64,000 bases of DNA from a virus (lineage: Duplodnaviria > Heunggongvirae > Uroviricota > Caudoviricetes), in IMG/VR virus record IMGVR_UViG_2913167280_000003, positions 1 through 64,000 of that record; one strand, 5' to 3'. The notes below the pieces were generated by a model. That model was not told where the DNA came from. It saw only the letters and a list, made by a program, of their open reading frames with translations, and made no database searches. Positions 5,801 through 42,132 of the stretch are shown one piece after another. The position numbers were made by a program, and so were the translations under genes. How positions within the stretch are numbered: the stretch's first letter is position 1; the number at the start of each line of letters is the position of its first letter.

Positions 5801-7712
5801 GGAATTCCTGTTTTGGAGCCACTATCTCGTTAATGTCGCCGCTGGTGGCGCGGGCGAACGGAACAATCCCGCCATACGGTGAAACCGCAATACCAGGGGT
5901 GCTGGCCAATAAATTAAGCAACTCTTCATCACTGGCTGGCAGTTCGCCGGTAAACGCAAGGCGGAAATCATCGAGCTGGATTGGATCGCGGGTAAGATCG
6001 CTATAGAGATAACGCAGGGTGTCCTGATAGCTGGTGGAGTCATAACTGGCGCTGGAATCATGCGTGACCAGCTTTCCTGTCAGCTCGTCAGAAATAGTGC
6101 CATCCAGCTTAATTGCACCACGGAAAGCAAACCAGGCGCGCGCACCGCTTCCCGATAATTTAGCTATCGGACCGCGACCGGGGTTACCAAAACGGTCAAT
6201 CTCTGCCTGCAAACGGGATACCAGAGAAAGGCGCTGCTGTTCGATTTGTTCAGCACTATGCCCGGCGGCCTTCATATCCTGATATTCAATTAACATCCGG
6301 CCAATCATCGCCCCGCGATACAAGCGTTCACGGTATTTTTCAGGCTGGCTGTTAATCCAGTCCACCAGCTGTACCATATCGTCGCTGATTGATGTGGTGT
6401 ACTTATCGCGGACATTTGCCATCTGGGTAAATGTCATGCCGAGACGGCCTTCAGTGGTAGTCAGGTTACGCTGAAGAGCCTCCCAGCTATCCGCGCCATA
6501 ACTGGCAACATCAATCTTCAGCTCCTTCCCGGCATCAGCTTCAATCCAGCGACCACCAGCATATTTTTGCCATACGCCATTAATCAGGCGCATTTCCCCT
6601 TCATCAACAACGTCTGCGGTCGGTGACGGTTCAGCCATATCAAGCAAAGACCAGTCGATACGGCTTTCGAAACGATGAATCAGCTTCGCTTTAAGAGCCT
6701 GGTTATCAATCTGCCCGTCGGCACGAACCTCAATACGCCCCTGGAATCCCTTCTCCTGGGTGCCATGAATAAACCGGCGGCCGTCCTTTTCAAACCACTT
6801 GCCAGAAATAAACGTTGGCCAAAGCACATTTGCCGATTCAAGAGTACCTTCATCCACCAGGGGGATTTTCTCAGCCATCTCCGCCGGATGTTTGCGCATC
6901 AGCACCACGTCAACGACTGTACTGGTCCCGTTTGCGTCAAAAGTACCGGTAGGCAAGCGGTGAGCGCCAAGAAATTCAGCTTTACGGGATAGGCGCAGGC
7001 GTAACCGCTTCATGTTTGAACCTGAAACAATGGACGGCGGCACAATCACACACATGAATCCGCCTGGCTTTATCTTGTCCAGCATGCGGAGCATGAAGTA
7101 AGAACCCATGTCCGTTTCTTCTGCGTAAGGCTTATCGATGTTGCGTGTGTTATCACGCCCGCCGAACGGAACGTTACCCACAACATGGTCGAATGAATCG
7201 TTAGGCGTGCTTACAGCCAGCTGTTCGAACGGGGAAATCTGTACGCTGTCTTCCGGATGCAACAGCTGGTTTATACGACCGGAAACACTGCTGATCTCAG
7301 TCGCAGTCATCACTGTACCAACCGGTTTTGTCTCATTAAAAACACCGGTTCCCGCGGAAGGTTCCAGGGTGTTACCTACGTCCGCGCCATAGAGCTTCAT
7401 GATCTCCCAGACGCCTTCAGCGATAGGTTTTGGTGTGTAATATTCGGAGACGGACCCGCCAATGCCGCCTTCACCGGTGTACCCAGCCAGGATCTGGCGC
7501 TGTTCATCTGTCAGTGTCGTGCCGTCCACCAGCGAATTAAGCAAATCTATCGCCTTCTGATTCGCCTCCCGGCGCAGTCGGTCATAGCTTTTGCCTTCCA
7601 CCTTTTCCACGCCGTATCTAATCGGCGCTCGATGAGATGTTATTGCCCTAATGTATTTCAATATTTCGCTGACACTTGAACAGCGAAAAACCCCCATAGA
7701 TAGCTTGTTCAT
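2826..7712 (-). CDS. darB: DarB-like antirestriction protein, N-terminal segment (N6-adenine methyltransferase-like and SF2 helicase-like domains)
   Basis: 1628-aa ORF. SAM-binding-like motif LEPSAGTGVF, NVPFGG (NPPY-like), Walker A GFGTGIGKTT and DEGH box. Confidence 0.75.
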   Translation of the reverse strand: MNKLSMGVFRCSSVSEILKYIRAITSHRAPIRYGVEKVEGKSYDRLRREANQKAIDLLNSLVDGTTLTDEQRQILAGYTGEGGIGGSVSEYYTPKPIAEGVWEIMKLYGADVGNTLEPSAGTGVFNETKPVGTVMTATEISSVSGRINQLLHPEDSVQISPFEQLAVSTPNDSFDHVVGNVPFGGRDNTRNIDKPYAEETDMGSYFMLRMLDKIKPGGFMCVIVPPSIVSGSNMKRLRLRLSRKAEFLGAHRLPTGTFDANGTSTVVDVVLMRKHPAEMAEKIPLVDEGTLESANVLWPTFISGKWFEKDGRRFIHGTQEKGFQGRIEVRADGQIDNQALKAKLIHRFESRIDWSLLDMAEPSPTADVVDEGEMRLINGVWQKYAGGRWIEADAGKELKIDVASYGADSWEALQRNLTTTEGRLGMTFTQMANVRDKYTTSISDDMVQLVDWINSQPEKYRERLYRGAMIGRMLIEYQDMKAAGHSAEQIEQQRLSLVSRLQAEIDRFGNPGRGPIAKLSGSGARAWFAFRGAIKLDGTISDELTGKLVTHDSSASYDSTSYQDTLRYLYSDLTRDPIQLDDFRLAFTGELPASDEELLNLLASTPGIAVSPYGGIVPFARATSGDINEIVAPKQEFLATLPDGPVKNNVLNQLAAIEEKRIKTPAENIRFKLNSRWFDRSVILEFLQENGYPDLRYVQSVQLEGDEMVSDTYHGGDGLFVGHRYGVVQRKDKETGEIRYEWDRKSGENATGFPAQLEKYLNGARIGGKDSTTANGYREQMALLEEQFNKWLKTHDRYDELVAKYNTVFNSNIPYEHSGDPLGLKGLSGKRQPFDYQNSEVRRLSEDGRGIMGFGTGIGKTTTALALEAFNYENGRSTRTAYVVPKSVLENWYYEAKEFLSEEAFSNYLFVGLDVLMDGDQIRQAPVLDENGKPVLDADGTPLMRDALKLADEATITARMNAILHSNYRAVVFTKEQYARIPLRDDTVDEHAQDMLYDFVAAGRVASAMDSDSHRKEAARRRILSEYSDTGTEKAEKYPYFEDMGFDSVIADEGHNYRNSYKNGREASQLAYLPTSAVAQSARDMAIKNAYLMKKNGGRGPVLLTATPVVNTPIDAYNMLFHVLPKEYWQKMGIYGPDDFVKFFGKTRLEAVQKISGEVEEKMALVGFENLDALRGIFHRWTTLKTAEDVKDTVEIPELDEHQQDAPLTEEQLAAYEELRQQVEAAAKANNGVTTSVNEDGVIEHEKARPIFSIIRDMDRVCTDMDLYYRRITYRFLPEYADAVQQLADSLPKQATSEDDDSDDSITQQSQYSLIDKGEFIQLQVPEAFEQEVNKRLARFGIDEQTVTHPVTPKYAKLIATLKEFFPEGKQIIFTDEKTQHQKLKRIICNALNLEPSKVGILNAQTVAEAGKTGKKLKAVKPPKELPDEPTDAQIAKYNEQMALYDAYIAQQNEMSLGGLEKIAADFQEGRTPIIICNKKAEVGINLHRGTTDIHHLTLPWTPASIAQRNGRGARVGSNRASVRVHYYCGKGSFDEYRLKTLKRKAGWISDILRSDKSEMENADANDMIEMQMYTAKDDGERLAMMQVQMDKAKAAQRARQKEQATIDLQNYIKAQHAAGEDVGGTYR

Positions 7713-11492: not shown

Positions 11493-11509
11493 ATTGCTCT
11501 AATTAATTT
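11493..11509 (+). promoter_or_regulatory. C1 repressor operator-like site upstream of ssb
   Basis: ATTGCTCTAATTAATTT, 16/17 match to the P1 C1 operator consensus ATTGCTCTAATAAATTT. Confidence 0.55.
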
Positions 11510-20429: not shown

Positions 20430-20669
20430 ATGCTAATAGGCTAAGTACGCGTATCAACAAATGAACAAAACACTGCTTTGCAACGAAATGCCCTTAAAAG
20501 CGCAGGATGTGAGCTAATTTTTGAGGATAAGGCGAGCGGCAAAAAGGCTGAACGCCCTGGGTTAAAAAAGGTTCTGCGTATGCTTTCCAGAAGTGACACC
20601 CTGGTCGTATGGAAGTTAGAGCGTCTTGGGCGCAGCATACGTCACTTGGTTGTGCTGGTGGAAGATTGA
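20430..20669 (+). pseudogene. cin: Serine invertase (Cin/Gin/Hin family) remnant, nonsense at codon 5 and truncated after about 79 codons
   Basis: Reads MLIG-stop-VRVSTNEQNTALQRNALKSAGCELIFEDKASGKKAERPGLKKVLRMLSRSDTLVVWKLERLGRSIRHLVVLVED. TAA at 20442-20444 replaces the conserved Tyr5 codon and the frame stops at 20669; the rest of the enzyme is absent. Confidence 0.8.
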
Positions 20670-20906
20670 AAAGTTAGCAGTTATCACAGCTACCCGATCA
20701 CTATCCGGAGCAATGAAGAAGATAGCGAGAATGGAAGAAAACACCTAACAATTTGATACATGATATTTTTACACGAAGAGCGAAACTCCTTTTGCAGGAA
20801 ATGGTCGCAATTACCTTTATGATGAAGGGTTGTCAACAGTTATTCTATTTTTTATAATCCACAAAAAAACAATTCAGGGTATTTTATATAAAAGTCAAGG
20901 CAACAT

Positions 20907-21449
20907 ATGGATATTGATTTTCTTAAAGAGTGTCTCCTAGTTGAAGTTATTGGTGGGGGTAATAAACAATTCTCATGGCCTCGCGCCATTCGCCATGCCT
21001 GGCGGCAACCTAAACGCAGGTTTCTTTTTTGGTGGCGTATAGCATCTTATCTATATGATATGGACAACAAATATCTAAAAAAACTCGGAAAGAAAATTAA
21101 CAGAAATTTATCCTTTAAATACAATACTGATATTGAACTTGGAGCATCAATAGCTCCTGGATTATACATTGGACATTATAGTGGCATTGTTATTACAAGA
21201 TATGCAACGATTGGTAGAAATTTTAATATAAGGCAAAACACAACTATTGGTTTAAAAAATTCTAACACTAACAGAGTTACCATTGGAGATAATGTTAATA
21301 TTGGAGCAAACTCCTGCATAATCTCAGACCACATCACTATAGGTGATAATGTAAAAATAGGGGCTTTTACCTTTGTAAATAAAGATATACCTTCAAATTC
21401 AACTTATTACACCAGGAAAATCAATATATGCAAGGAAAGGGAGGCGTAG
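20907..21449 (+). CDS. Hexapeptide-repeat (left-handed beta-helix) acetyltransferase
   Basis: 180-aa ORF in an AT-rich segment. Tandem [LIV]-G-x4 repeats: IGHYSGIVITRYATIGRNFNIRQNTTIGLKN, TIGDNVNIGANSCIISDHITIGDNVKIGAFTFV. Confidence 0.75.
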   Translation: MDIDFLKECLLVEVIGGGNKQFSWPRAIRHAWRQPKRRFLFWWRIASYLYDMDNKYLKKLGKKINRNLSFKYNTDIELGASIAPGLYIGHYSGIVITRYATIGRNFNIRQNTTIGLKNSNTNRVTIGDNVNIGANSCIISDHITIGDNVKIGAFTFVNKDIPSNSTYYTRKINICKEREA

Positions 21450-21464
21450 CCCCCCCCTTCTTTA

Positions 21465-22043
21465 CTATTTCATAAATTCTGGCCACTCGATATTAGGAGC
21501 ATCGTCAGGGTTAACTCGGTTAAGTAACACCCGGTATCTTTTCCATTTTATCAAACTTACTTTCTCTTCTTCTGTAGCCATATCCAAATCGACAGCATCT
21601 TGCAGAGTGGCAATAATTTCACCTGCATATGCAATCTTCTCCTTCTTCTGAGACTCAGCCGCTCTTACAAATGCATCACGCTCTGCCTTCTCATCATTAA
21701 CCCACACATTTCCATTCCATTTTTGATAATCCCCATCCGGGAAAATAGCTGTCACGTCTGGAGGTAATGCGCCAAGTTCAGAAATATAAATGGCTGCACC
21801 CGTTTTCGTTTCGTAGACGGTCTTTCCGCGATGGTCCTCCACCAGATGCCATTTCATTTCATCAGCATTAAATACAGCAGCAAAACCTGCTGGAATATCT
21901 GGAGGCGCAATATCTGTGCTGTTTGCAGGAATACCCGTATGTGGAGGAATATATGCGTCACTTTCACCAATAAATTCATTTGTACCATCGAGATAATTAA
22001 ATACGCGAATAGTTTGTGCTTCTGCACTCATTTTAAAACTCAT
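21465..22043 (-). CDS. U: Tail fibre assembly protein (U-like)
   Basis: 192-aa ORF immediately downstream of and overlapping the tail-fibre gene. Assigned by position and size. Confidence 0.6.
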
Positions 22044-25000
22044 TATGCAAGCCTCACTATATAATTAAATGCAATGTTTTTGACGGTGTTTTCGGTATTA
22101 CCCGTTGGATTTACCGTGATAGTGTGTCCGTGTGTTCCCAATGCCAAAGTGTGTGCATGGGCGCCAATACCAACAGTATGATTGTGAGCACCAATTCCTA
22201 CTGTATGGGCATGGTTGCCTGCAGAGCTTGTTTGAACTGTATTCCGAAGGCCATCTGCATCCCAATCACCTCTGGTGCCAGATGCTTGAGCTCCTGTTAT
22301 GTAACCATGTGTATGGGCACCTGTTGTATTGGTTGTTTTTGTTCCGTAATCAAATGTACTGACTGTTTTCGTGCCGTAATCAAATGAGCTGGTCGTTTTA
22401 GTACCGAGGTCAGTATTTGATGCACTGGCACTGTGAGTATGCGATTTAATCCCGTCCTGTTCCTGTGACAATACGGCACGCCCACTGGCGGGTTTGCCCT
22501 TGATTGTCCAGCCGCGCATATCAGGAATAACACCAGAAGGATAGGCTATAGCCAGTTTCGGATATGCTGCCTTATCAAACGTCTGCCCCTGCATGATTGC
22601 ATAGCCTGCAGGTGGTGTATCTGATGGCCACGGCAGCGGAACACCTGGCGGAAACGCTTCAATATTTGCCGAGCCGTCAAATTTTACGCCGTTAATTGTC
22701 CTTGCCGTTTTCAGCTTTGTTGCTGTAGCAGCATTGCCAGACAGTTCACCAGAAAGGCCAGCACTGAAGGTTTGCTTCGCCGCCCATGTCTGGGCTTCGT
22801 CAATTATCGGCACTCGTCTTGCCGTGATCGTGCGGCTTCCCGGATTTCCTGAGATGCGCACCATGAAGAAACGGTAGTTTGCTTTACTTACAGTGCTGCG
22901 CCATACATGCATTGAGCGCCCCGTACCGGAGTCATCACTTGGGCCAACCGCGATGTTTATTAGGTTTCCATCAATGACGCCCCAGTCCATGCCGTCGGGA
23001 ATGTTAGTCATATTATCAAGCCGAACGGTTATCAGACTGCCCGGAACGAAATCGTAGGTCTGCCAGTCCAGGCTGGTGAGTTTTGCCACTGCGCCACCGA
23101 TACCCAGATTCAGGGGCAACGAAAAGGAGTTATATACTTCTCGCCATTCGGTCCATTTGCTCCCGGCGTAGACGCGCTCAAAAGTGCGCCCCTGTGTGGT
23201 TTCTGCTTTCCCTGTGGTTGTGTAACGCTGCCAGACAGACACACCATCAAAACGTCTGATTACTTCCAGTATCCCAAGCAGTGTTGCTCCAGCGGTATCC
23301 TGCATTGGACCGTTTGTTGCCTTCCCTGTAACGCTGTAAATGCCAGGTGAAGTCAGATCATTCAAATCACCTTCGTAATAACGACATTCTGACTGGTGGC
23401 CTACTCTTGACCACGGTTCCCACTGTGGGTTCTTTGCATCCCATGCAGCAGAAAGACAGCGAACATACACATTTCCGCGGCGGGTCGTGTAACGTTGTGT
23501 TCGTGAGTAACCACCACCTTCAAGGACTTCAAGAAGTCCCTGCCCATAACTGCCTTCTTCTGGATAGTTGCGTTCAAATGACGCTATAGAGCCACTACTG
23601 TTTCGCCATGAGCCAAGATGCTCTGCGCCTCCGAGCGTATTCAGGTCAATGGTTGTACTCAGAGAGCGTGTTGCTGACTGAATCTGTCGCCAGTAGCTCC
23701 AAGGGCCGTCAGAGCCATTCCAGGAACCAGAAAGGTTGCGCATATAAACATTGCCAGTTCTGGTGGTATAACGCTGCATTCCGGAAAAATTACCGCCATT
23801 GAATACCTCAAGAACACCGACGGCACCGTCTTCCGGGAAATGTTTCTCCAGTGTTGCGTTGGATGATGTGGATTTATACCAGCCCCCCACATAATCCTTA
23901 ACTGGACCGAAAGTATTCAGGTCTGCATCAACTGGCATTTCGCCGTTGTTTTTCATAAACGTCAGGCTGGTGACGTCAAGGTTTGCAGGCGTCAGAGAAA
24001 TATCTTTAGAACCGTCAAATGAAACGCCGTTTATCTTTCTGGCTGTTTTTAATTTCGTCGCGGTATCGGCGTTCCCCGTCAACGCACCGCTGATCCCACC
24101 GTTGAAAGTCTGGCGTGCGCTCCAGGTGTTAGCCGTACTCAACAGGGGGATCTTTTCGCCGCTTGTGCCGAGTTCTCTTAAACCAAGGTATTGGATAACA
24201 GCAAGGACACTTGTTTTAGCCAGAATATCGCGACCGACTGACGTTAAATCAGTCTGGGCAACAGTATCTTTACCGGTAAAGTACGGCAATTTATTTGCGC
24301 CGGTCGCAAGGCCAGCGAGCGCGGTTAAAGTTGCATCCAGAGGCTGTTTGCCTGCCAGCGCATTGGTCATTGTTGTCGCAAAGTTCGGGTCATTGCCAAG
24401 TGCTGCTGCAAGCTCATTCAGGGTATCAAGAGCTTCTGGTGATGAGCCGACCAATGCAGATATAGCAGCCCGTACGTAAGCAGTCGTAGCGATCTGCGTA
24501 TTATTTGTTCCCTGTGCAGCGGTAGGCGCAGTAGGGATTCCCGTTAATGCAGGACTTGCCAAAGGCGCTTTAAGAGCCAGTGCGTTATTGATAGTGGCAC
24601 TGAAATTCGGGTCGTTATTGATAGCTGCCGCAATTTCTTTCAGCGTATCCAATGCTCCAGGAGCACCATTGATAAGTGCAGTTATAGCGGCCTTAACAAA
24701 GGCTGTATTTGCGATCTGCGTGCTGTTTGTACCTTGAGCTGCCGTCGGCGCGGTTGGCGTTCCTGTCAGACTCGGGCTTTCTATCGGCGCTTTGGTATCA
24801 GCCAGATCTTTTACAGACTTGACGGCTTTAGGGGTAGCCGCCATTGTTTCGCTGTCGCTGTCAGTTGCGCTACTGAGCTGAACTAACCCCTTTTGCGTTG
24901 TGCTTGCATCCTGCGCCGTATACTTGCTTTTCGCCAGATCGTAGGCTTTTTTAACTGCCAGAGAACTTGCAGCGACATCGCTTCTGCTGCTGGTTACAGA

Positions 25001-25546
25001 GTCTGAAATTTCAATGCCAATCGTGCGGTTGATACGCTCTGATGTATCAATCATCTCCTGGGTAATGGCAGATACCCCGGCAGGGATATTCACCGTACAA
25101 ACAAGCAGCTCACCATCTCCTAACTGATATGAATCGGTATAAGTTCTGGCGACAAATTCAGCCGCATGAATATGTGAGGCGGTATTAACCTGATAGGTGT
25201 CTTCTCCAAGAAGGTATCTTCCCTTCAGCACAATTGCATATTTTTTGCCTGCACTAAGTGCAAGGGAGATATCCCTACGGTGTTGAATAGTTACCTGATA
25301 GAATTCGCCAATATCCACTGACGCCGCGCCAGCAGTTTTATCACCATCCAGTGAGGTGATTAACAGGTTCATCCCACCGCCAGGCTTCGGCAGGAAACCG
25401 GCATAAAATCCTGGGTCAACAATTCCCCTGAATTTTCGGTTTAGCGCGGCTGACAGATATGGTTCGTGGTATTGCACATCAGCCACCAGAGCCAGTGACT
25501 CGGGGGATGGGTAAGTAACTGATGTGACAACTGTAACGTCATTCAT
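22043..25546 (-). CDS. S: Tail fibre protein (S-like)
   Basis: About 1167 aa from the internal ATG at 25546 (AAGGA RBS). Two tandem ~75-aa fibre repeats ([10 protein letters not shown]...NDPNF) and a His-rich C-terminal region ([22 protein letters not shown]). Confidence 0.8.
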
Positions 25547-37614: not shown

Positions 37615-37789
37615 GTATTTTTAAGTCGCGAATGCTATCTTTTCGCATCATATTGACCTTTTAATCGTTCAGGCTTATAGTTCCGCCGTCGTAGCAAATT
37701 CTGCGACCAGGTTTGACAGCCTGAAAACTTACGCGGACAACCGCACATTTCCGATATTGCGGTATTTTTGTGTCCGTAAAACCACGTTA

Positions 37790-37870
37790 CGCCCGAATTA
37801 TGGTGGGGCGTGATGGGGAGGCTTCGGCCTGCTGGTTTCGTAAGTGCCAGTCTGTCAACCCTGTCACGTC
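37790..37870 (+). ncRNA. c4: c4-like antisense RNA region (approximate boundaries)
   Basis: ORF-free region between the operator and icd. Contains CTGTCAACC (37852-37860) and CTGTCACG (37861-37868), complementary to the repeated TTTGACAGC motifs at 37711-37720 and 37881-37889. Confidence 0.4.
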
Positions 37871-37927
37871 CTGCCACCTGTTTGACAGCGGGTCGCAGGT
37901 TGTTTATCAACTTACGAGGCCGTAACT

Positions 37928-41317: not shown

Positions 41318-41499
41318 TACAATCGCTGCGGGTGCTTGAGGCTATCTGCTTCAGGCACTACCCGACAAGCAGATAGAAGAAAGCCCCAGATAACATTACG
41401 CGTCCTGCAAGACGCTTAACATTAATCTGAGGCCATATCTATGCTTAGCATACGTAGATTAGCCCTCTCCCCTTTTTAGGAGCAAGGAATTTTTTACTG

Positions 41500-42132
41500 C
41501 TATGCCGCCTTTCCAATTATGGATTCAGCGACCAGAACAACCCCATGCTTACTTCTATCTGGGTGTTCACTCCATATCTCGGATTCAGGAATACTTACCC
41601 CGTCATAGCAAACACGTTCGCCGTCAAACGGGTAATACTGAGCGGCATCGGTGTCGAGGATAAACACTTTTAGCTCGGAAGAGCGACGGGCGATGTGTTG
41701 CCAAAGAGCTTTTCCACCTTCGTATTGCTCATTATCACTGAGCAAAACAACACCAGCTTTTGAGGCTACGGTTTCGTAAACAAAAGTAGCTAAACCGACA
41801 TCCCGGACGGTTCCATCAACCACGATACCTTCAATCTGGGCAACATCGCTATCCTCCCAGAACTTCCTTACAAGTACGCCTTCAAGCTGCGGGCGACGTT
41901 GAAGTTCAAGAGTAGCGACAACCTTATGGCGCATATCACCATCGATAACAGAAGGCGCAGCCTCTATTACAGCTGCAAATGGGGTTTTGGAATCCCATAT
42001 AACCTGGTAAAGCACACCCTGGATGGTAACTCCGTCCAGGATCGAAAATCGACGAGCGACAGTACCCGGGGAGTACGACATTGGAATCACAGCCATTTTA
42101 GAGTCCCCCTTTAACAGTACAGGCACAAACAT
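41500..42132 (-). CDS. Hypothetical protein (PmgF-like position)
   Basis: 210-aa ORF with its own AT-rich upstream region. Confidence 0.35.
   Translation of the reverse strand: MFVPVLLKGDSKMAVIPMSYSPGTVARRFSILDGVTIQGVLYQVIWDSKTPFAAVIEAAPSVIDGDMRHKVVATLELQRRPQLEGVLVRKFWEDSDVAQIEGIVVDGTVRDVGLATFVYETVASKAGVVLLSDNEQYEGGKALWQHIARRSSELKVFILDTDAAQYYPFDGERVCYDGVSIPESEIWSEHPDRSKHGVVLVAESIIGKAA

Follow-up and report, generated by a model that had tools for sequence, protein, structure and literature searches.

A hexapeptide-repeat acetyltransferase gene beside the tail-fibre genes of a P1-like phage-plasmid: a candidate lysogenic-conversion enzyme acting on lipopolysaccharide

WcaB, which acts on colanic acid, and EpsC-type enzymes acetylate polysaccharide repeat units in the cytoplasm, and in phage P2 the slot between G (tfa) and FI (tail sheath) holds the lysogenic-conversion gene Z/fun. 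Prophage O-acetyltransferases that remodel surface glycans are already known as a kind. The beta-helix O-acetyltransferase NeuO, encoded by a prophage, acetylates the K1 capsule, a surface glycan that serves phages as receptor, and raises survival under attack by K1 phage (PMC3046976, PMC13001214). Oac of Sf6, GtrC and OafA, all of the acyltransferase-3 (AT3) type, bring about lysogenic conversion via O-acetylation of lipopolysaccharide (LPS) (PMC9558356), and putative acetyltransferases are encoded by 5-30% of Klebsiella prophages (PMC13123978). We analysed a hexapeptide-repeat acetyltransferase gene located at 20907-21449 (+ strand) in the first 64,000 nucleotides of virus record IMGVR_UViG_2913167280_000003; this whole stretch of DNA is termed the window. 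The gene has an ATG start and an intact open reading frame of 180 codons. Our preferred reading, to which we give an even chance, is that it is a horizontally acquired single-gene cargo (moron) encoding a lysogenic-conversion O-acetyltransferase of LPS, probably of the core.

The window protein, like NeuO of prophage CUS-3, is predicted to be a prophage-encoded soluble left-handed beta-helix O-acetyltransferase with a catalytic His. However, it belongs to another beta-helix subfamily: no NeuO, OatWY or polysialate O-acetyltransferase chain was found among the best 60 of 77 structure matches of the single sequence (E<=0.01), or among 51 family-profile matches at E<=1e-6. A phase-variable heptanucleotide repeat is found in NeuO, but the window gene is free of tandem and simple repeats; and the acceptor of NeuO is a capsule, whereas the gene context of the window family points to LPS core. 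The AT3-type enzymes share the biological logic proposed for the window gene, but they are integral-membrane proteins that act on O-antigen at or beyond the membrane, unlike a soluble beta-helix protein. The family occupies exactly the Z/fun slot in P2-like prophages, convergent with the fibre chaperone gene G, and is likewise a candidate lysogenic-conversion gene there; however, it has no sequence relation to Z/fun, and other P2-like phages hold unrelated genes in the slot. A gene named 'sacF' in JL22 and its counterpart in Ro157c2YLVW belong to the same family (52% identity), lie on a P1 backbone beside the S fibre gene and have a convergent neighbour in a lambda-type tfa. These paralogues represent another allele; they are located between U' and tfa, within a C segment that is intact and invertible, and cin is functional in JL22, whereas the window has lost cin function, cixL, Sv' and U'. 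The authors of the JL22 study considered the role of the paralogue in a P1-like plasmid unknown (PMC9603915).

The window protein is almost certainly an acetyltransferase. It matched PF00132 (Hexapep) at 34.4 bits and PF14602 (Hexapep_2) at 33 bits, both above the Pfam cut-off of 27, and consists of an N-terminal helical region (residues ~1-72) followed by a left-handed beta-helix. An earlier note, made from the sequence alone, had proposed a 180-aa left-handed beta-helix acetyltransferase, and the Hexapep matches and intact reading frame bear this out. A full-length match to phrog_2154 was obtained (E=3.1e-68, 229.9 bits, residues 2-178 on profile positions 5-181 of 185). The nearest curated families were EpsC (NF041874; 82.6 bits, cut-off 150, E=2.5e-23), cysE (TIGR01172; 71.1 bits, cut-off 210.65; PRK11132, 44.4 bits versus 397) and WcaB (TIGR04016; 48.7 bits versus 194.65 and 49.5 versus 196, E=3e-13). 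The curated NeuD/PglB/VioB family matched at E=5e-13, and every curated cut-off was missed. The window protein gave significant matches to WcaB and EpsC and resembles them in its short (~160-170 aa) CysE-like beta-helix architecture; however, it lies below both equivalog cut-offs, has motifs of its own (WWR at 42-44, RQNTT at 109-113, and Cys137), and belongs to a family whose context is waa rather than wca or eps.

The closest solved structures were all CysE (PDB 1T3D, 1SSM and 6WYE), at E=2e-11 with the single sequence and 5e-19 with the family profile. The alignment covers the last helices of the CysE N-terminal domain and the beta-helix, from residue 40 to ~170. In the CysE DHATG motif, the catalytic His aligns with His90; the catalytic Asp of CysE aligns with Asp75. 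In an alignment of 163 family members, His90 was kept in 162/162 and position 75 was Asp or Glu in 162/162; these two residues are the predicted catalytic pair. The L-serine-binding residues of CysE, which we take from published structures to be Asp157, Arg192 and His193 (E. coli numbering), correspond to Gly89, Arg123 and Val124 in the window protein. The Asp157 equivalent was Ser, Pro, Gly, Ala, Thr or Asn, and never Asp, in the 163 members, while positions 123 and 124 were variable or hydrophobic. No SATase_N domain was matched at E<=0.01, and the protein, of 180 aa versus ~273 for CysE, ends in ...CKEREA and has no CysK-binding Ile tail. Because the catalytic pair is kept and the serine-binding residues are lost, the protein appears to be a CysE-fold acetyltransferase, catalytically competent by sequence, with a different acceptor site. 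It is very probably not a serine acetyltransferase, and the database label 'serine acetyltransferase' is not supported. The earlier note had set a full CysE active site against its own proposal of a sugar-modifying enzyme. The Asp157, Arg192 and His193 positions, the lack of SATase_N, the scores below cut-off and the glycan gene context make a sugar O-acetyltransferase far likelier.

The proposed acceptor comes from the surroundings of the chromosomal relatives, some of which (45-58% identical) lie in waa core operons. In Leminorella grimontii, genes for glycosyltransferases of families GT4 and GT8, WaaY and WaaZ (402 bits, cut-off 200) precede the acetyltransferase gene, which is followed by the convergent gene of the O-antigen ligase WaaL. 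The proteins closest to the Leminorella protein among the 163 family members are the window-type alleles (57-58% identity). A second enterobacterial contig has the order WaaQ, WaaG, WaaP, GT8, WaaY, WaaZ, acetyltransferase, convergent WaaL, WaaC, WaaF and HldD. In Endozoicomonas, a GT4 gene and three WaaP-like kinase genes stand before the acetyltransferase gene, and a GT4 gene, an unannotated gene and an O-antigen ligase gene after it. Candidatus Pelagadaptatus has MsbA, HldE, acetyltransferase and AT3-SGNH, then a convergent heptosyltransferase gene. In Pseudomonas (>=23 contigs, that is, at least that number) and Aquipseudomonas (24 contigs), the order is WapO carbamoyltransferase, GT2, acetyltransferase, with MsbA further on; WaaP-family kinases precede WapO in the Pseudomonas clusters only, not in Aquipseudomonas. 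To judge from their gene content, the conserved chromosomal operons that hold the acetyltransferase gene make LPS core. The family member of the pseudomonad clusters is thus a candidate core O-acetyltransferase of some pseudomonads. In several of these loci (L181-L184, L187-L189), the acetyltransferase gene lies between WapO plus GT2 and a gene for a conserved 486-aa protein without a Pfam match. Reference strains PAO1 and DC3000 have no family member. P. aeruginosa PA5003 was considered as a homologue and rejected; it is listed as GNAT-type in a P. syringae paper.

Glycan-related neighbours were also found in prophages. The phrog_1962 gene, annotated as glycosyltransferase, directly adjoins the acetyltransferase gene in Salmonella and other prophages. 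Its product has ~245 aa and no Pfam or PDB match. In a Salmonella enterica s1 prophage (L006, 5231-6534), the acetyltransferase/phrog_1962 pair lies between two oppositely placed tfa genes. In three loci (L134, L135, L139), genes for the fibre, Tfa, a 152-aa protein, the acetyltransferase and a glycosyltransferase follow one another on one strand. In Photorhabdus-type prophages (L053, L106, L115, L116), the gene of a 302-aa WaaZ-like protein begins 80 bp downstream of the acetyltransferase gene; this neighbour is KdoIII transferase-like (MptE/DUF115), that is, WaaZ-like or sialyltransferase-like. The pair mirrors the WaaZ-acetyltransferase pair of Leminorella with the gene order reversed.

The acetyltransferase gene of the window is a horizontally acquired foreign gene. 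It lies with its upstream region in an AT-rich foreign block (20666-21474) that was delimited by composition and by blastn breakpoints set against P1, JL22 and E. fergusonii plasmids. GC content is 34.3% in the gene and 34.6% in the block, versus 47.6% in the left flank, 48.6% in the right flank and 48.0% in the window. Homology to P1 ends at 20665 inside cin and resumes at ~24008. The stop codons of the acetyltransferase gene and of the tail-fibre assembly gene tfa are 15 bp apart, so the two genes are convergent. The AT-rich block that the earlier note had placed between the cin stub and tfa, convergent with the fibre operon, was confirmed in composition, in the P1 breakpoint and in the distance of the stop codons; its span of 20670-21460 fits the inserted block, within which the coding sequence itself takes up 20907-21449. 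Searches for flanking repeats, insertion sequence (IS) ends and target duplications around the block yielded only one chance-level 12-nt pair. A transposable element was rejected as the source, there being no flanking direct or inverted repeats to suggest one.

The gene is under purifying selection: the ratio of nonsynonymous to synonymous substitution rates (dN/dS) was 0.07-0.16 against five relatives. The foreign block also contains a sigma-70 promoter-like site, TTGTCA-17 nt-TATAAT (20830-20858, + strand), situated 48 bp upstream of the ATG and matching the consensus at 11/12 positions. Four alleles with differences elsewhere share its -10 hexamer and spacing unchanged. A Shine-Dalgarno-like AAGG (20897-20900, + strand) was recognised in the sequence 6 nt 5' of the ATG. 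The P1 C1 operators closest to the gene, at 11493 and 37598, are more than 9 kb away. Because the candidate promoter lies in the foreign block, is conserved in its -10 hexamer and spacing and has no overlapping C1 operator, expression of the acetyltransferase from it in the lysogen is plausible. A scan of the intergenic leader against Rfam gave no match.

Under the preferred reading, the gene's own near-consensus sigma-70 promoter would drive its transcription in the lysogen, on the strand opposite to the late tail-fibre operon. The product would be a soluble enzyme dependent on acetyl coenzyme A (acetyl-CoA), presumably a trimer like other left-handed beta-helix enzymes, that uses His90 and Asp75 for catalysis and has an acceptor pocket unlike that of serine acetyltransferase. 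With acetyl-CoA as donor, it would acetylate a hydroxyl group on an LPS sugar, most likely a core sugar, and the altered surface of the lysogen would amount to lysogenic conversion. P1 and P2 adsorb to LPS core. Given this receptor and the T4-like type of the fibre tip, lower adsorption of LPS-dependent phages would be a reasonable consequence; phages that use LPS or its core, including relatives of the carrier, might be affected, or other surface interactions might be altered. The core oligosaccharide is assembled on the membrane's cytoplasmic side, and Pseudomonas cores are O-acetylated by transferases that have not been identified (PMC8005017). We consider it probable that the acceptor is a surface glycan of some kind and an even call that it is LPS, specifically the core. 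Superinfection exclusion as the result is possible though doubtful.

Several findings weigh against the reading as an LPS-core enzyme. The acceptor is deduced from gene neighbourhood only, and the neighbourhood evidence comes from a minority of loci: clear LPS or polysaccharide clusters held just 5/80 loci of a one-genome-per-species set, plus contigs from targeted look-ups, and at most genome loci the gene stands alone among unrelated neighbours. The waa relatives are 45-58% identical to the window protein, a distance at which acceptor specificity can change. The candidate promoter is a consensus match only, and promoter-like sites are no commoner here than in shuffled sequence. The structure model gives nothing past the sequence evidence: an AlphaFold2 model built from a 32-sequence alignment had a mean predicted local distance difference test score of 73, with 45-72 in the beta-helix and short strands at residues 86-158, and Foldseek against the PDB returned only weak serine acetyltransferase matches (best E=1e-3, template modelling score ~0.3). 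No defence model of PADLOC-DB 2.0 was matched at E<=1; hence there is no independent link to phage resistance. The window allele was present in just 6/477 P1-like plasmids and in 1/5426 complete E. coli genomes, where it is frameshifted. On E. coli plasmid AP027688 (NZ_AP027688.1, 8479-9016), the allele (~95% aa identity) has a frameshift near codon 62, and RefSeq annotates only a 288-bp remnant of it. The acetyltransferase gene can thus be lost while the plasmid stays, and it is dispensable.

The rarity of the allele among P1-like plasmids, the frameshift in AP027688 and the scarred state of the region, with cin dead and cixL lost, would also suit an inert passenger left behind when recombination exchanged the fibre module and inactivated cin. 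We consider a passenger quite improbable, because the reading frame is intact, dN/dS against close alleles is 0.07-0.14, the promoter and ribosome-binding site are conserved, four independent contigs encode an identical protein, and the large family (873 hits) is conserved. A genuine serine O-acetyltransferase, acting as an auxiliary metabolic gene that boosts cysteine synthesis, would agree with the best curated-family and solved-structure matches, which are CysE or EpsC, and with the name used in public records; the JL22 paper treats the paralogue in this way (PMC9603915). However, the scores of 71 bits versus 211 for cysE and 83 versus 150 for EpsC, the family-wide loss of the serine-binding residues, the short length and the missing SATase_N and Ile tail all argue otherwise, and the relatives never adjoin cysK or cysM but lie in waa operons instead. 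This makes serine acetylation very improbable.

A further possibility is a surface glycan other than LPS core: an O-antigen repeat unit, enterobacterial common antigen, colanic acid or a capsule, in which case lysogenic conversion would still be the outcome. After cysE and EpsC, the nearest curated families are the exopolysaccharide enzymes WcaB and NeuD/PglB/VioB; one Pseudomonas locus pairs the family gene with a gene for a KpsS-like capsule-synthesis protein, AT3-SGNH O-acetyltransferases are neighbours in Rosenbergiella, Vitreoscilla and Pelagadaptatus, and the known prophage precedents modify capsule or O-antigen (PMC3046976). However, among the loci examined, there was no relative within a cluster for O-antigen (rfb), colanic acid or group 1/2 capsule, all curated exopolysaccharide family cut-offs were missed, and the context that recurs independently is the waa core cluster; we therefore regard another glycan as unlikely. 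An acceptor that is not a glycan, such as a small molecule, antibiotic, toxin, metabolite or phage component, would make the gene one of defence, counter-defence or detoxification. Cargo slots often carry defence or toxin-antitoxin genes (HicAB and DinI in Citrobacter phage phiNP; the G-to-FI slot of P2), and the family occurs on many conjugative plasmids and as solitary chromosomal genes without glycan neighbours. The beta-helix acetyltransferases also include the xenobiotic enzymes Vat and CatB. Against such an acceptor stand the lack of any PADLOC match and the absence of Vat or CatB among the best 25 of 32 NCBIfam matches at E<=0.01, the other 7 all being weaker than E=1.2e-4; moreover, the conserved operon partners, where present, are LPS-core genes or glycosyltransferase genes. 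An acceptor of this kind is improbable in our judgement.

The family comprised 873 clusters at 90% identity (E<=1e-5), mostly from Enterobacterales. The window protein was found unchanged on four public contigs, one of which is a 91-kb NCBI contig with the same gene order. In phiNP, an allele 82% identical follows dinI and hicAB at the prophage end and is convergent with tfa; this copy was listed merely as a 'fitness' gene (PMC6456863). A family member is convergent with the fibre gene in a myovirus prophage of Proteus mirabilis and adjoins an NleG effector gene in a lambdoid remnant of E. albertii. In 37/80 viral contigs, a fibre or fibre-chaperone gene was directly downstream and convergent, while in the one-genome-per-species set just 5/80 loci were fibre-adjacent and the downstream neighbours were mostly unrelated housekeeping genes. 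Across 163 loci, the acetyltransferase gene was mostly solitary; its partners vary, and there was no constant operon partner. According to tblastn, 365 plasmids carry the family, 179 of them conjugative (for example, pO55). The plasmid members, 48-56% identical, are common as solitary genes; their carriers are conjugative or mobilizable plasmids, of the IncF type among others, from Escherichia, Shigella and Enterobacter. The family gene of pO55 (E. coli O55:H7; 5932-6519) has a YacAB toxin-antitoxin pair on one side and a ProQ/FinO gene on the other.

In phiNP-type and Salmonella prophages, the acetyltransferase gene, tfa and the fibre tip are colinear with 73-76% DNA identity. Identities of the acetyltransferase and of tfa were correlated across loci (Mantel r=0.79; 0/2000 permutations reached this value). 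We rejected this co-inheritance as functional evidence, since physical linkage and near-duplicate loci explain it. Exceptions are loci L105 and L109, in which tfa is 81% but the acetyltransferase 49% identical, and the E. fergusonii plasmids, on which the unchanged acetyltransferase allele has another neighbour. Thus, the acetyltransferase gene frequently moves together with the fibre-tip module without being tied to it. The slot past the tail-fibre genes is a general cargo slot.

The window shares its left junction in cin with E. fergusonii plasmids and with AP027688, pointing to one ancestral event. At this junction, the same allele (99.4% aa identity) is found on plasmids of E. fergusonii and E. 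coli, but the downstream arrangement differs there. In the E. fergusonii-type plasmids, the acetyltransferase gene is followed immediately by a 399-bp copy of the S 5' part, equivalent to 25125-25523 of the window (98.5% identical), and then by U' and U. The tail fibre of the window is fixed, as had been proposed earlier, with cixR in S and no second cix site in the window. The further proposal that the enzyme is matched to this fixed fibre was weakened by three findings: the same allele occurs with the other downstream arrangement, the JL22-type paralogue lies in a C segment that is still invertible, and the slot contains other small genes in a P2-like phage with 86% DNA identity to the window in tfa.

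A broader reading joins these observations: phrog_2154 proteins and their chromosomal relatives may be cytoplasmic LPS-core O-acetyltransferases, spread by phages and plasmids, that edit the receptor and so exclude core-dependent phages. Copies of the gene would be spread by P1-like, P2-like, lambdoid and Mu-like phages and by conjugative plasmids, often within a cassette of fibre tip, chaperone and acetyltransferase. We hold this joint reading as tentative and rather doubtful. In a literature search, we found no report in which the function of any family member of P1, P2 or prophages had been tested. What this analysis adds is the link, drawn from gene neighbourhoods, between the phrog_2154 family and LPS-core operons. 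For the window alone, the finding is modest, being that of an ordinary cargo gene in a standard cargo slot. If the prediction of an LPS-core acceptor holds, a large family annotated as 'serine acetyltransferase' and without a function label in PHROGs would be re-assigned to LPS-core modification; it spans at least 873 clusters, hundreds of plasmids and many Enterobacterales prophages. This would correct an annotation that at present leads authors astray, the JL22 paper discussing cysteine synthesis (PMC9603915), and would provide a candidate enzyme for the O-acetyl groups of Pseudomonas cores (PMC8005017). Lysogenic conversion would extend to the core receptor of P1, P2, Mu and T4-type fibres, with bearing on phage-therapy host range and P1 transduction. 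Under the joint reading, phrog_2154-type genes would also represent a widespread, unrecognised form of superinfection exclusion by receptor editing.

The window is a P1-like phage-plasmid with the gene order darA, hdf, lydB, lydA, lydC, cin and the S/R tail-fibre operon. The cin invertase gene is a pseudogene remnant (20430-20669, + strand), recognised by a match to the resolvase N-terminal domain and by its translations. It is inactivated twice: a TAT-to-TAA change turns Tyr5 into a stop upstream of the catalytic serine, and the gene is truncated, its homology to P1 cin stopping after residue 78/186. On the other side of the acetyltransferase gene lies the lambda Tfa-type tail-fibre assembly (chaperone) gene (21465-22043, - strand; Caudo_TAP, E=1.8e-36), which has 86% DNA identity to tfa of the P2-like phage P24A7b. 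The S tail-fibre gene follows (22043-25546, - strand; 1167 aa as called, with a maximal reading frame to 25633). The constant part of the S fibre is P1-like, and the variable part is a mosaic of P2 gpH-like and Stf/gp37-like tip segments; a tip of the Stf/gp37 type is also found in T4-like phages. A cixR site inside S (24170-24199, + strand) matches the 30 nt of P1 cixR exactly. No second cix-like site was present in the window, cixL being gone. Without a partner site, the C segment is unable to invert and the fibre is kept in one orientation; the cixR site is a fossil of the invertible C segment, with neither a partner nor a working invertase.

Scans against Rfam gave further matches in the window. 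A sub-threshold match to the E. coli small RNA candidate IS009 (21502-21700, - strand; 49.5 bits versus 117, E=6e-10) lies inside tfa and probably reflects homology to cryptic-prophage tfa genes, not an RNA gene. A sok antitoxin RNA was found at 41330-41504 (+ strand; 87 bits, gathering cut-off 59), which implies that this P1-like plasmid has a post-segregational killing module of the hok/sok type; phd/doc is the system on which classical P1 depends. Several C1 operators and the P1 C4 antisense RNA are present. The C4 RNA and the a1/b1 target sites of the P1 immI region (37675-37727 and 37796-37881, + strand) scored above the Rfam gathering cut-offs, which confirms P1-type immunity circuitry.

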